DNA of 64,000 nt from Escherichia coli (GCF_030013205.1 NZ_CP122648.1); one strand, 5' to 3'. Numbered from the stretch's first letter, positions 36,117-61,425 are shown. A program made the numbers and translations. The notes: generated by a model from the letters alone, not told the origin.

Positions 36117-37592
36117 ATGGCGGTAACGCAAACAGCCCAGGCCTGTGACCTGGTCATTTTCGGCGCGAAAGGCGACCTTGCGCGTCGTAAATTGCTGCCT
36201 TCCCTGTATCAACTGGAAAAAGCCGGTCAGCTCAACCCGGACACCCGGATTATCGGCGTAGGGCGTGCTGACTGGGATAAAGCGGCTTATACCAAAGTTG
36301 TCCGCGAGGCGCTCGAAACTTTCATGAAAGAAACCATTGATGAAGGTTTATGGGACACCCTGAGTGCACGTCTGGATTTTTGTAATCTCGATGTCAATGA
36401 CACTGCTGCATTCAGCCGTCTCGGCGCGATGCTGGATCAAAAAAATCGTATCACCATTAACTACTTTGCCATGCCGCCCAGCACTTTTGGCGCAATTTGC
36501 AAAGGGCTTGGCGAGGCAAAACTGAATGCTAAACCGGCACGCGTAGTCATGGAGAAACCGCTGGGGACGTCGCTGGCGACCTCGCAGGAAATCAACGATC
36601 AGGTTGGCGAATACTTCGAGGAGTGCCAGGTTTACCGTATCGACCACTATCTTGGTAAAGAAACGGTGCTGAACCTGTTGGCGCTGCGTTTTGCTAACTC
36701 TCTGTTTGTGAACAACTGGGACAATCGCACCATCGATCATGTTGAGATTACCGTGGCAGAAGAAGTGGGGATCGAAGGGCGCTGGGGCTATTTTGATAAA
36801 GCCGGTCAGATGCGCGACATGATCCAGAACCACCTGCTACAAATTCTCTGCATGATTGCGATGTCTCCGCCGTCTGACCTGAGCGCAGACAGCATCCGCG
36901 ATGAAAAAGTGAAAGTACTGAAGTCTCTGCGCCGTATTGACCGCTCCAACGTACGCGAAAAAACCGTACGCGGGCAATATACTGCGGGCTTCGCCCAGGG
37001 CAAAAAAGTGCCGGGATATCTGGAAGAAGAGGGCGCGAACAAGAGCAGCAATACAGAAACCTTCGTGGCGATCCGCGTCGACATTGATAACTGGCGCTGG
37101 GCCGGTGTGCCATTCTACCTGCGTACTGGTAAACGTCTGCCGACCAAATGCTCTGAAGTCGTGGTCTATTTCAAAACACCTGAACTGAATCTGTTTAAAG
37201 AGTCGTGGCAGGATCTACCGCAAAATAAACTGACTATCCGTCTGCAACCTGATGAAGGCGTGGATATCCAGGTACTGAATAAAGTTCCTGGCCTGGACCA
37301 CAAACATAACCTGCAAATCACCAAGCTGGACCTGAGCTATTCAGAAACCTTTAATCAGACGCATCTGGCGGATGCCTATGAACGTCTGCTGCTGGAAACC
37401 ATGCGTGGTATTCAGGCACTGTTTGTTCGTCGTGATGAAGTGGAAGAAGCCTGGAAATGGGTAGACTCCATTACTGAGGCGTGGGCGATGGACAATGATG
37501 CGCCGAAACCGTATCAGGCCGGAACCTGGGGACCTGTTGCCTCAGTGGCGATGATCACCCGTGATGGTCGTTCCTGGAATGAGTTTGAGTAA
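36117..37592 (+). CDS. zwf: Glucose-6-phosphate 1-dehydrogenase
   Basis: 491 aa; motifs [11 protein letters not shown] and RIDHYLGKE. Confidence 0.97.
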
Positions 37593-37670
37593 TATCTGCG
37601 CTCATCCTTTATGGTTATTTTACCGGTAACATGATCTTGCACAGATTGTAGAACAATTTTTACACTTTCA

Positions 37671-37707
37671 GGCCTCGTGCGGATTCACCCACGAGGCTTT
37701 TTTTATT
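37671..37707 (+). terminator. Rho-independent terminator-like hairpin downstream of zwf
   Basis: gcctcgtg-cggattcaccc-acgaggc followed by a T7 run. Confidence 0.7.
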
Positions 37708-37826
37708 ACACTGCCTGAAACGTTTTTGCCCTATGAGCTCCGGTTACAGGCGTTTCAGTCATAAATCCTCTGAATGAAACGCGTTGTGAATCATCCTGCT
37801 CTGACAACTCAATTTCAGGAGCCTTT

Positions 37827-39638
37827 ATGAATCCACAATTGTTACGCGTAACAAATCGAATCATTGAACGTTCGCGCGAGACTCGCTCTGCTTACCTCGC
37901 CCGGATAGAACAAGCGAAAACTTCGACCGTTCATCGTTCGCAGTTGGCATGCGGTAACCTGGCACACGGTTTCGCTGCCTGCCAGCCAGAAGACAAAGCC
38001 TCTTTGAAAAGCATGTTGCGTAACAATATCGCCATCATCACCTCCTATAACGACATGCTCTCCGCGCACCAGCCTTATGAACACTATCCAGAAATCATTC
38101 GTAAAGCCCTGCATGAAGCAAATGCGGTTGGTCAGGTTGCAGGCGGTGTTCCGGCGATGTGTGATGGTGTCACCCAGGGGCAGGATGGAATGGAATTGTC
38201 GCTGTTAAGCCGCGAAGTGATTGCGATGTCTGCGGCGGTGGGGCTGTCCCATAACATGTTTGATGGTGCTCTGTTCCTCGGTGTGTGCGACAAGATTGTC
38301 CCGGGTCTGACGATGGCAGCCCTGTCGTTTGGGCATTTGCCTGCGGTGTTTGTGCCGTCTGGACCGATGGCAAGCGGTTTGCCAAATAAAGAAAAAGTGC
38401 GTATTCGCCAGCTTTATGCCGAAGGTAAAGTGGACCGCATGGCATTACTGGAGTCAGAAGCCGCGTCTTATCATGCGCCGGGAACATGTACTTTCTACGG
38501 TACTGCCAACACCAACCAGATGGTGGTGGAGTTTATGGGGATGCAGTTGCCAGGCTCTTCTTTTGTTCATCCGGATTCTCCGCTGCGCGATGCTTTGACC
38601 GCAGCCGCTGCGCGCCAGGTTACACGCATGACCGGTAATGGTAATGAATGGATGCCGATCGGTAAGATGATAGATGAGAAAGTGGTAGTGAACGGTATCG
38701 TTGCACTGCTGGCGACCGGTGGTTCCACTAACCACACCATGCACCTGGTGGCGATGGCACGCGCGGCCGGTATTCAGATTAACTGGGATGACTTCTCTGA
38801 CCTTTCTGATGTTGTACCGCTGATGGCACGTCTCTACCCGAACGGTCCGGCCGATATTAACCACTTCCAGGCGGCAGGTGGCGTACCGGTTCTGGTGCGT
38901 GAACTGCTCAAAGCAGGCCTGCTGCATGAAGATGTCAATACGGTGGCAGGCTTTGGTCTGTCTCGTTATACCCTTGAACCATGGCTGAATAATGGTGAAC
39001 TGGACTGGCGGGAAGGGGCGGAAAAATCACTCGACAGCAATGTGATCGCTTCCTTCGAACAACCTTTCTCTCATCATGGTGGGACAAAAGTGTTAAGCGG
39101 TAACCTGGGCCGTGCGGTTATGAAAACCTCTGCCGTGCCGGTTGAGAACCAGGTGATTGAAGCGCCTGCGGTTGTTTTTGAAAGCCAGCATGACGTTATG
39201 CCGGCCTTTGAAGCGGGTTTGCTGGACCGCGATTGTGTCGTTGTTGTCCGTCATCAGGGGCCAAAAGCGAACGGAATGCCAGAATTACATAAACTCATGC
39301 CGCCACTTGGTGTATTATTGGACCGGTGTTTCAAAATTGCGTTAGTTACTGATGGACGACTCTCCGGCGCTTCAGGTAAAGTGCCGTCAGCTATCCACGT
39401 AACACCAGAAGCCTACGATGGCGGGCTGCTGGCAAAAGTGCGCGACGGGGACATCATTCGTGTGAATGGACAGACAGGCGAACTGACGCTGCTGGTAGAC
39501 GAAGCGGAACTGGCTGCTCGCGAACCGCACATTCCTGACCTGAGCGCGTCACGCGTGGGAACAGGACGTGAATTATTCAGCGCCTTGCGTGAAAAACTGT
39601 CCGGTGCCGAACAGGGCGCAACCTGTATCACTTTTTAA
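37827..39638 (+). CDS. edd: Phosphogluconate dehydratase (Entner-Doudoroff)
   Basis: 603 aa; IlvD/Edd family. Confidence 0.96.
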
Positions 39639-39674: not shown

Positions 39675-40316
39675 ATGAAAAACTGGAAAACAAGTGCAGA
39701 ATCAATCCTGACCACCGGCCCGGTTGTACCGGTTATCGTGGTAAAAAAACTGGAACACGCGGTGCCGATGGCAAAAGCGTTGGTTGCTGGTGGGGTGCGC
39801 GTTCTGGAAGTGACTCTGCGTACCGAGTGTGCAGTTGACGCTATCCGTGCTATCGCCAAAGAAGTGCCTGAAGCGATTGTGGGTGCCGGTACGGTGCTGA
39901 ATCCACAGCAGCTGGCAGAAGTCACCGAAGCGGGTGCACAGTTCGCAATTAGCCCGGGGCTGACCGAGCCGCTGCTGAAGGCTGCTACCGAAGGGACTAT
40001 TCCTCTGATTCCGGGGATCAGCACTGTTTCCGAACTGATGCTGGGTATGGACTACGGTTTGAAAGAGTTCAAATTCTTCCCGGCTGAAGCTAACGGCGGT
40101 GTGAAAGCCCTGCAGGCGATCGCGGGTCCGTTCTCCCAGGTCCGTTTCTGCCCGACAGGTGGTATTTCTCCGGCTAACTACCGTGACTACCTGGCGCTGA
40201 AAAGCGTGCTGTGCATCGGTGGTTCCTGGCTGGTTCCGGCAGATGCGCTGGAAGCGGGCGATTACGACCGCATTACTAAGCTGGCGCGTGAAGCTGTAGA
40301 AGGCGCTAAGCTGTAA
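39675..40316 (+). CDS. eda: KDPG / KHG aldolase
   Basis: 213 aa; [23 protein letters not shown]... Confidence 0.96.
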
Positions 40317-59376: not shown

Positions 59377-61425
59377 ATGAACATGTTTTTTAGGCTTACC
59401 GCGTTAGCTGGCCTGCTTGCAATAGCAGGCCAGACCTTCGCTGTAGAAGATATCACGCGTGCTGATCAAATTCCGGTATTAAAGGAAGAGACGCAGCATG
59501 CGACGGTGAGTGAGCGCGTAACGTCGCGCTTCACCCGTTCTCATTATCGCCAGTTCGACCTCGATCAGGCATTTTCGGCCAAAATCTTTGACCGCTACCT
59601 GAATCTGCTCGATTACAGCCACAACGTGCTGCTGGCAAGCGATGTTGAACAGTTCGCGAAAAAGAAAACCGAGTTAGGTGATGAACTGCGTTCAGGAAAA
59701 CTCGACGTTTTCTACGATCTCTACAATCTGGCGCAAAAGCGCCGTTTTGAGCGTTACCAGTACGCTTTGTCGGTACTGGAAAAGCCGATGGATTTTACCG
59801 GTAACGACACTTATAACCTTGACCGCAGCAAAGCGCCCTGGCCGAAAAACGAGGCTGAGTTGAACGCGCTGTGGGACAGTAAAGTCAAATTCGACGAGTT
59901 AAGCCTGAAGCTGGCAGGAAAAACGGATAAAGAAATTCGTGAAACCCTGACTCGCCGCTACAAATTTGCCATTCGTCGTCTGGCGCAAACCAACAGCGAA
60001 GATGTTTTCTCGCTGGCAATGACGGCGTTTGCACGTGAAATCGACCCGCATACCAACTATCTTTCCCCGCGTAATACCGAACAGTTCAACACTGAAATGA
60101 GTTTGTCGCTGGAAGGTATTGGCGCAGTTCTGCAAATGGATGATGACTACACCGTTATCAATTCGATGGTGGCAGGTGGTCCGGCAGCGAAGAGTAAAGC
60201 TATCAGCGTTGGTGACAAAATTGTCGGTGTTGGTCAAACAGGCAAGCCGATGGTTGACGTGATTGGCTGGCGTCTTGATGATGTGGTTGCCTTAATTAAA
60301 GGGCCGAAGGGCAGTAAAGTTCGTCTGGAAATTTTACCTGCTGGTAAAGGGACCAAGACCCGTACTGTAACGTTGACCCGTGAACGTATTCGCCTCGAAG
60401 ACCGTGCGGTTAAAATGTCGGTGAAGACCGTCGGTAAAGAGAAAGTCGGCGTGCTGGATATTCCAGGTTTCTATGTGGGTTTGACAGACGATGTCAAAGT
60501 GCAGTTGCAGAAACTGGAAAAACAGAATGTCAGCAGTGTCATCATCGACCTGCGTAGCAATGGCGGTGGGGCGTTGACCGAAGCGGTATCGCTCTCCGGT
60601 CTGTTCATTCCATCCGGTCCGATTGTTCAGGTCCGTGATAACAACGGTAAAGTTCGTGAAGACAGCGATACTGATGGGCAGGTTTTCTATAAAGGCCCGC
60701 TGGTGGTGCTGGTTGACCGCTTCAGTGCTTCGGCTTCAGAAATCTTTGCCGCGGCAATGCAGGATTACGGTCGTGCGCTGGTTGTGGGTGAACCGACGTT
60801 TGGTAAAGGCACTGTTCAGCAATACCGTTCATTGAACCGTATCTACGATCAGATGTTACGTCCTGAATGGCCAGCGCTGGGTTCTGTGCAGTACACGATC
60901 CAGAAATTCTATCGCGTTAACGGCGGCAGTACGCAACGTAAAGGCGTAACGCCAGACATCATCATGCCGACGGGTAATGAAGAAACGGAAACGGGTGAGA
61001 AATTCGAAGATAACGCGCTGCCGTGGGATAGCATCGATGCCGCGACCTATGTGAAATCGGGAGATTTGACGGCCTTTGGACCGGAGCTGCTGAAGGAACA
61101 TAATGCGCGTATCGCGAAAGATCCAGAGTTCCAGAACATCATGAAGGATATCGCGCGCTTCAACGCTATGAAGGACAAGCGCAATATCGTTTCTCTGAAT
61201 TACGCTGTGCGTGAGAAAGAGAATAATGAAGATGATGCGACGCGTCTGGCGCGTTTGAACGAACGCTTTAAGCGCGAAGGTAAACCGGAGTTGAAGAAAC
61301 TGGATGATCTACCTAAAGATTACCAGGAGCCGGATCCTTATCTGGATGAGACGGTGAATATCGCACTCGATCTGGCAAAGCTTGAAAAAGCCAGACCCGC
61401 GGAACAACCCGCTCCCGTCAAGTAA
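59377..61425 (+). CDS. prc: Tail-specific protease Prc (Tsp)
   Basis: 682 aa from ATG 59377 (MNMFFRLTALAGLLAIAG, signal peptide); six-frame ORF starts at 59329. Confidence 0.95.
   Translation: MNMFFRLTALAGLLAIAGQTFAVEDITRADQIPVLKEETQHATVSERVTSRFTRSHYRQFDLDQAFSAKIFDRYLNLLDYSHNVLLASDVEQFAKKKTELGDELRSGKLDVFYDLYNLAQKRRFERYQYALSVLEKPMDFTGNDTYNLDRSKAPWPKNEAELNALWDSKVKFDELSLKLAGKTDKEIRETLTRRYKFAIRRLAQTNSEDVFSLAMTAFAREIDPHTNYLSPRNTEQFNTEMSLSLEGIGAVLQMDDDYTVINSMVAGGPAAKSKAISVGDKIVGVGQTGKPMVDVIGWRLDDVVALIKGPKGSKVRLEILPAGKGTKTRTVTLTRERIRLEDRAVKMSVKTVGKEKVGVLDIPGFYVGLTDDVKVQLQKLEKQNVSSVIIDLRSNGGGALTEAVSLSGLFIPSGPIVQVRDNNGKVREDSDTDGQVFYKGPLVVLVDRFSASASEIFAAAMQDYGRALVVGEPTFGKGTVQQYRSLNRIYDQMLRPEWPALGSVQYTIQKFYRVNGGSTQRKGVTPDIIMPTGNEETETGEKFEDNALPWDSIDAATYVKSGDLTAFGPELLKEHNARIAKDPEFQNIMKDIARFNAMKDKRNIVSLNYAVREKENNEDDATRLARLNERFKREGKPELKKLDDLPKDYQEPDPYLDETVNIALDLAKLEKARPAEQPAPVK

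Follow-up and report, generated by a model that had tools for sequence, protein, structure and literature searches.

Between zwf and edd in Escherichia coli lies a near-palindrome that resembles a binding site of the gluconate-responsive repressor GntR, and it is followed by a terminator-like hairpin, which raises the question of how an operator for edd-eda could work from a place upstream of a terminator. A sequence-only reading of this DNA had called the arrangement odd and offered three ways out: action of the operator from a distance, an attenuator role for the hairpin, or a palindrome that is not the edd operator. We consider it likely that the palindrome (O1) is the distal GntR operator, that the edd promoter P1 is built into the zwf terminator, and that O1 and a second operator inside edd (O2) together repress P1, probably by looping.

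The window, which is the whole 64-kb stretch of DNA that was analysed, carries on its plus strand zwf (glucose-6-phosphate dehydrogenase, 36117-37592, with the stop codon TAA at 37590-37592), edd (37827-39638), and eda (39675-40316). These were taken from the ORF list, and their identities were confirmed with NCBIfam equivalog models (TIGR00871 with an E value of 2.5e-205, TIGR01196, and TIGR01182/NF004325, respectively); zwf is also so annotated by RefSeq in identical E. coli DNA. The edd start codon ATG (37827-37829, plus strand) and its Shine-Dalgarno sequence AGGAG (37817-37821) lie in a block that is invariant in the alignment described below (37817-37829), and the small ORFs in the zwf-edd spacer are short and overlap known genes. 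The 401 bases around the palindrome match several sequenced strains with 100% identity, and of 5426 complete E. coli genomes 5425 contain them, annotated as zwf and edd. The spacer measures 234 bp and differs from that of K-12 MG1655 at three positions, none of which falls in O1, the hairpin, the -35 or -10 hexamer, or O2. This is the same locus as in K-12, where edd-eda P1 has reportedly been placed under GntR control, in work by Egan et al. in 1992 and by Murray and Conway in 2005. That GntR represses edd-eda from P1 belongs to the textbook knowledge on E. coli, and the finding as such is already known; GntR is documented as a repressor of edd-eda (PMC9648032).

For comparison we used 80 edd loci, one genome per species. 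Sixty are from Enterobacteriaceae in which edd follows zwf, and together with the window they make up a set of 61 sequences; the remaining 20 loci are from other Enterobacterales, in which zwf does not precede edd (Serratia, Yersinia, Rahnella, Proteus, Xenorhabdus, and Erwinia). The conservation profile of the aligned sequences has conserved blocks at 37616-37644, 37655-37661, 37668-37712, 37713-37731, 37817-37829, and 37839-37854.

The near-palindrome is a 20-mer, ttattttaccggtaacatga, at 37615-37634, which begins 23 nt past the zwf stop and has the perfect core TTACCGGTAA at 37620-37629, exactly as it had first been described. The operator proper, O1 (ATTTTACCGGTAACAT, 37617-37632, centre 37624.5), is a palindrome and has no strand. 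The E. coli GntR operator consensus is ATGTTACCCGTAACAT, and one natural operator is ATGTTACCGATAACAG (PMC10450161). O1 has a single mismatch in the 15 specified positions of the consensus ATGTTACCNGTAACAT. When the 64-kb window was searched with the consensus at up to three mismatches, three places were found, equal to six strand-wise matches versus 1.14 expected, and 0 of 100 shuffles reached six; by our own arithmetic, about 0.005 matches with at most one mismatch are expected in 64 kb. TTAC-GGTAACAT of O1 is invariant in the alignment of the 61 Enterobacteriaceae. O1 is a 16-bp palindrome near the consensus, it stands in the control region of a member of the gluconate regulon, and it is conserved together with the gene.

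The distances around O1 show to which gene it belongs. In Enterobacteriaceae with the zwf-edd order, O1 and the edd ATG are 197-220 bp apart, also in spacers enlarged to 379 bp, and the distance of O1 to the -10 hexamer of P1 (see below) is 81.5-83.5 bp in 61 of 61 sequences. The enlarged spacers are those of Buttiauxella (L040, L043, and L044), with 379-380 bp versus about 234 bp and a zwf stop that is about 145 bp farther off. There, the added DNA is located between the zwf stop and O1, and O1 (at -210), the terminator-promoter, and O2 are unmoved relative to edd. The distance of O1 is thus fixed to edd and not to the zwf stop, which argues that O1 belongs to edd and against the proposal that the palindrome is not the edd operator. 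That it might be a chance match, or an element of zwf unrelated to edd (for example an RNA element of the 3' untranslated region), is suggested by its location in the zwf 3' untranslated region, where it could form a small RNA hairpin. We regard this as extremely improbable, given the roughly 0.005 such matches expected per 64 kb, the Buttiauxella distances, the match of O1 to the gntT and gntK operators, and the presence of GntR sites upstream of edd also in relatives in which edd is not beside zwf. The palindrome is the edd-eda GntR operator as judged by sequence and conservation, predicted to bind GntR and to act at a distance, as one of the three proposals had it.

The sequence-only reading had spoken of a GntR-type operator, which holds for the E. 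coli GntR protein, whose consensus O1 matches with one mismatch, but not as a family label. K-12 GntR has the Pfam domains LacI helix-turn-helix and Peripla_BP_1, which place it in the LacI/GalR family, and these LacI-type domains rule out O1 as an operator of the winged-helix GntR family (FadR/HutC type). Caution is needed here, as GntR is the name of a protein and not a family label.

Several features in and around O1 are not accounted for by GntR. The right flank of O1 (GATCTtgCACAG, 37633-37644, no strand assigned) is invariant or nearly so in the conservation profile of the 61 Enterobacteriaceae (GATCT, then aACACAG); GATCT is invariant and holds a GATC (Dam) site. This GATCT..CACAG flank lies outside the symmetric GntR site and is not accounted for by GntR symmetry or binding. 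When the flank was compared by hand with the GntR and CRP motifs, an additional, overlapping GntR site fitted at only 7 of 15 positions and a CRP site at only 6 of 10, and both candidates were rejected as weak. The left half-site of O1 reads ATTTTAC versus ATGTTAC in the consensus, with T for G at 37619; this departure is kept in more than 90% of the species and is not explained by GntR binding. An antisense promoter in O1 was considered for the minus-strand TAAAAT, which is -10-like, and was rejected for want of a -35 hexamer. The third GntR-like sequence of the window, ATTTTACCGGTAACGA at 59792-59807, lies inside the coding sequence of prc (tail-specific protease), has three mismatches and 14 nt in common with O1, and is probably a chance match.

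The hairpin downstream of O1 has the properties of an intrinsic terminator. Its perfect 8-bp stem (GCCTCGTG at 37672-37679 and CACGAGGC at 37690-37697) and the run of seven T at 37698-37704 were correctly placed by the sequence-only reading. The stem extends to 12 pairs, so that the terminator as a whole (37670-37704, plus strand) comprises a 12-pair stem-loop at 37670-37699 and a U-tract at 37698-37704; the hairpin lies 78 nt past the zwf stop. It folds with -18.9 kcal/mol (z = -6.3), and 0 of 200 shuffles fold as well. Across the 61 sequences, 92.9% of the cells of the stem are paired, six of the 12 pairs have compensatory (both-side) changes, and the covariation score of the stem was reached by 0 of 500 shuffles. 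A stable GC-rich stem-loop followed by a U-tract, 3' of a stop codon and with compensatory changes, is thus present, and the hairpin is, as far as such features predict termination, a real zwf terminator that would end zwf transcripts. A scan for consensus terminators did not report it, probably because the perfect arms are separated by 10 nt and the scan allows loops of up to 8 nt, a limit of the tool that does not speak against the hairpin. The table of 3' ends mapped by Adams (2021), which is possibly incomplete, has no entry at the position of the U-tract. The GC-rich stem and the U7 are like those of other intrinsic terminators, and the conserved loop is unlike them: in the 61 sequences, every position of the loop GGATTCACC is invariant or conserved to at least 90% and the T-run and the following TTAcACT barely vary, while the stem covaries. 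A conserved loop is unexpected for a terminator and is explained if the loop doubles as a promoter element.

A promoter in this place is what the scan of the spacers with a position weight matrix (PWM) identified. Across the 61 spacers a single promoter-like position is conserved, TTCACC-17-TACACT, with a mean of 9.37 bits and a minimum of 7.03 bits, compared to 2.6 bits for the next best position; in the window alone it is the top candidate with 9.5 bits and 8 of 12 consensus positions. The putative -35 hexamer of P1, TTCACC (37684-37689, plus strand), lies in the loop and the inner pairs of the hairpin, and the -10 hexamer, TACACT (37707-37712, plus strand), follows after 17 bp, within the 16-18 bp spacing of conserved sigma-70 hexamers. 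In the -10 hexamer T1, A2, A4, C5, and T6 are invariant, and the few variants (TATACT and TAAACT) are closer to the consensus. We infer a start near A37719, which corresponds to position 1934712 (minus strand) of K-12 U00096.3, is invariant in the alignment, and would give a leader of 108 nt. The mapped P1 start is reported to lie about 109 bp upstream of edd, in agreement with this position. A conserved A/T-rich stretch (AATTTTT ... CTTT, 37655-37669, plus strand; 80-90% conserved at 37655-37661 and 37667-37668) lies at about -64 to -50 of P1 and is possibly a UP-element-like or bent segment.

A scan for consensus promoters did not report P1, which has 8 of 12 positions where nine are needed. 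In the start-site tables of Kim et al. (2012), made from glucose or rich-medium cultures, P1 has no entry, the starts listed are weak and lie inside zwf, and none is given for Klebsiella edd; the Cappable-seq tables of Ettwiller (2016), which are possibly incomplete, have no entry in the P1 range; P1 is expected to be repressed in the growth conditions of the start-site tables. The weak starts of Kim et al. (2012) are three positions with 3-6 reads in the 3' part of zwf, at about 37232, 37421, and 37476 of the window, which are assigned there to edd. They correspond to U00096.2 positions 1933223, 1933034, and 1932979, a coordinate conversion that was confirmed by the printed flanking sequence, and transcripts from them would run into the zwf terminator.

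Immediately downstream of the -10 hexamer the block gCTGAAgCGATTTTGCC is conserved at 37713-37731. It includes a sequence that looks like a Cra/FruR box, gCCTGAAACGTTTTTG (37713-37728, no strand assigned), which overlaps the putative start, forms the left arm of the second inverted repeat, and corresponds to the conserved block GCTGAAGCGATTTTGC in relatives; binding of Cra is predicted. The Cra motif is gcTGAAtCGaTTCAgc (PMC5888115), and the window agrees with it at 11 of 16 positions and the majority sequence of the relatives at 13 of 16, the pattern alone being weak and nonspecific (at two mismatches). A review places the Cra sites of edd-eda on or after the site bound by RNA polymerase (PMC4393010); the position of the Cra-like box agrees with this and lends indirect support to the placement of P1. 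Compared with other Cra operators (pfkA, pykF, and edd-eda), the TGAAnCG box at the start site is alike, and the right half-site is poor here (TTTTTG versus TTCAGC).

The second inverted repeat, which had been placed at about 37732-37772 and regarded as a further candidate operator or structure, does exist, with other coordinates: its arms are at 37712-37722 and 37751-37761 (11 nt, 91% complementary). A third copy of TGAAACG is found at 37775-37781, and the leader repeats of this type (GCGTTTCAGTCA at 37750-37761 and TGAATGAAACGC at 37771-37782; together 37750-37782, plus strand) are inverted repeats that form a hairpin in the minimum-free-energy fold of the E. coli sequence. The left arm alone is widely conserved and is the Cra/FruR-like box; the right arm and the third TGAAACG copy are conserved in close relatives only. 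The fold of the whole leader is unremarkable (z = -1.4), a consensus RNA structure was not found in the edd leader of 46 sequences, the second inverted repeat included, and an Rfam search gave no match at E values up to 1.

These results bear on the proposal that the hairpin is an attenuator of edd. With a conserved -35 hexamer inside the loop and a putative start about 15 nt past the T-run, the edd transcript would start after the T-run, so that the hairpin would lie outside it and not be an edd attenuator. An attenuator would have a terminator between promoter and gene, as well as a conserved antiterminator or a known leader RNA, and neither was found. The spacer of the window has a further promoter-like sequence, TTGCAC-18-TACACT (37637-37666, 7.63 bits), which is specific to Escherichia, reads TTGCGC in place of TTGCAC in K-12, and would start transcription inside the 5' stem arm. 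If edd were transcribed from this site, the hairpin would be a leader terminator and O1 an adjacent operator. Only two sites in the spacer of the window score higher, and its -35 hexamer adjoins O1. The site is not conserved, its mean falling short of each of the eight best-conserved positions listed, seven of which average at most 2.6 bits; the key A at position 2 of its -10 hexamer varies among genera, the leader has no conserved structure of the antiterminator type and no Rfam match, and the conserved loop would be left without a role. We therefore consider transcription of edd from this site very unlikely. With P1 superimposed on the zwf terminator, as we prefer, an operator that precedes this terminator is no longer odd, because the terminator and the promoter overlap.

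The sequence-only reading had missed a partner operator within edd. O2 (TTGTTACGCGTAACAA, 37839-37854, centre 37846.5) is a perfect palindrome that covers codons 5-9 of edd, with both TGTTAC/GTAACA half-sites and three mismatches to the GntR consensus, and its centre is 222 bp from that of O1. Both sites occur in 61 of 61 Enterobacteriaceae with the zwf-edd order. O2 is found in 0 of 20 relatives without O1, in which the RVT residues are kept, the codons vary, and there is no palindrome. We calculated the codon entropy of 76 conserved four- or sixfold degenerate codons among the first 150 codons of edd, and the lowest three are codons 6 (TTA), 8 (GTA), and 9 (ACA), with 0, 0, and 0.21 bits, respectively, versus a median of 1.52 bits. 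The chance that the three lowest values fall among the four degenerate codons of O2 is about 4 in 70,300 (our own arithmetic). Codon 7, at the centre of the palindrome, is CGC or CGG only, and residue 5 is Leu (TTG) or Met (ATG), both of which keep the xTGTTAC half-site. By this pattern of codon use, O2 is a DNA element and not merely coding sequence, and it is predicted to be a GntR-type operator.

Codon 5 is ATG in edd of Klebsiella and Raoultella (L017, L021, L022, L024, and L056), which gives a better operator match (ATGTTAC). The edd gene of K. pneumoniae is annotated 12 nt shorter than that of E. coli (1800 versus 1812 nt), as if the codon-5 ATG had been taken as the start. About half of the 20 loci in which edd is not beside zwf have GntR-type sites at most 200 bp upstream of edd, most of them as pairs 14-15 bp apart. 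Site pairs in Serratia, Rahnella, Proteus, and a metagenome-assembled genome (L062, L066, L068, L074, L076, L078, L080, and L081) lie either between -78 and -197 relative to edd or about 610-635 bp away on the upstream side, where they probably stand before another gene.

With the distance between O1 and the -10 hexamer fixed, O1 would lie near -94.5 and O2 near +127.5 relative to the P1 start, so that the two operators flank P1 and neither touches the core promoter. The O1-O2 distance is more variable, with 209-214 bp in 12 sequences, 218-223 bp in 48, and 232 bp in one, and no sequence has 215-217 or 224-231 bp. Length changes were counted by parsimony on a neighbour-joining tree, which yielded 17 events of 1 bp, five of 2 bp, one of 3 bp, two of 6 bp, one of 9 bp, and three of 10 bp; among the last is an insertion of exactly 10 bp that sets one species apart from its sister. 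The 10-bp events hint at a possible constraint of the leader length to whole helical turns. Helical phase is kept only loosely, with 5 bp covered by the main cluster, two 6-bp changes, and a tolerance of about ±3 bp, alongside four independent changes of 9-10 bp. In a Rayleigh test of the O1-O2 distances for helical periodicity the period was unresolvable, the distances spanning just 23 bp.

Two operators could also act independently of each other, without a loop. O2 would then be the site that effectively represses, as an elongation roadblock at about +127, and GntR on O1 would mainly stop polymerase coming from zwf, as a backup to the terminator that keeps edd from being expressed by read-through when gluconate is absent, or would contact the alpha subunit of the polymerase at P1. 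That O1 is part of the zwf 3' untranslated region and precedes the terminator by about 40 nt fits with this, as do the loosely kept O1-O2 phasing and the fact that O1 is held far more rigidly at its distance from the promoter than at that from O2. Set against these are the strict co-occurrence of the operators (both in 61 of 61 sequences, and O2 in 0 of 20 without O1), the preference of the larger promoter-O2 length changes for 9-10 bp in four independent events, and the strong terminator that already lies 3' of O1, where a roadblock would add little. We judge independent action of the operators to be unlikely.

Repression by O1 and O2 acting together is the reading we favour, and the mechanism that we infer, including the exact start site, the binding of GntR and Cra, and the looping, would be as follows. 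P1 would be superimposed on the zwf terminator, with its -35 hexamer in the loop, the 3' stem arm and the T-run as the 17-bp spacer, and the -10 hexamer directly after. Without gluconate, GntR on O1 and O2 would repress P1, most likely by enclosing the promoter in a loop of about 222 bp, and O2 may also serve as an elongation block; gluconate would release GntR. The Cra/FruR-like box at the start site would provide a second, independent layer of repression. Some LacI-family members loop DNA, and the mechanisms of LacI and GalR differ (PMC3877293). GntR is 331 aa long and has, by length, no obvious LacI-type tetramerisation tail.

The TGTTAC-N4-GTAACA palindrome is common to gntT, gntKU, and edd. 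K-12 gntT has two GntR-type sites 141 bp apart, the downstream one just before the ATG, and two-operator control of this gene is said to have been described by Peekhaus and Conway in 1998. K-12 gntK has two overlapping GntR-type sites 13 bp apart, and overlapping GntR sites of gntK have been reported (PMC4052901). Unlike gntT and gntK, edd has neither site on the core promoter, the widest spacing (222 bp), and one site within coding sequence. The same repressor family includes GalR, with the gal operators OE and OI, and LacI, with the lac operators O3 and O1; as in gal, the operators of edd are up- and downstream of the promoter and none is on the core promoter. The lac O3 operator lies at -82 and the gal loop measures 113 bp. 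The position of edd O1, near -90, is comparable with that of lac O3, and the putative edd loop would be longer than that of gal, at about 222 bp.

This is an ordinary, largely known control region, and some residual novelty lies only in the operator at codons 5-9, the use of the terminator loop as a -35 element, and the pattern of leader length changes. Only tentatively, and with more doubt than confidence, do we propose a wider reading: the control region would be a compact composite in which one 35-nt element acts in RNA as the zwf terminator and in DNA provides the -35 hexamer and spacer of P1, combined with a GntR loop of about 222 bp from the zwf 3' untranslated region to edd codons, such that codon choice and partly the residues (Leu/Met 5 and Leu 6) would be fixed across Enterobacteriaceae and the leader would change in length mainly by about one helical turn at a time. 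What the analysis offers is mainly a correct annotation, in which an operator upstream of a terminator is explained without an attenuation mechanism. In published engineering, the edd spacer alone has been replaced (PMC4172795). Recoding the 5' end of edd, or swapping only the spacer, leaves or destroys a repressor site unnoticed, and deletion of the zwf terminator would remove the edd promoter too, which matters for the engineering of Entner-Doudoroff flux.
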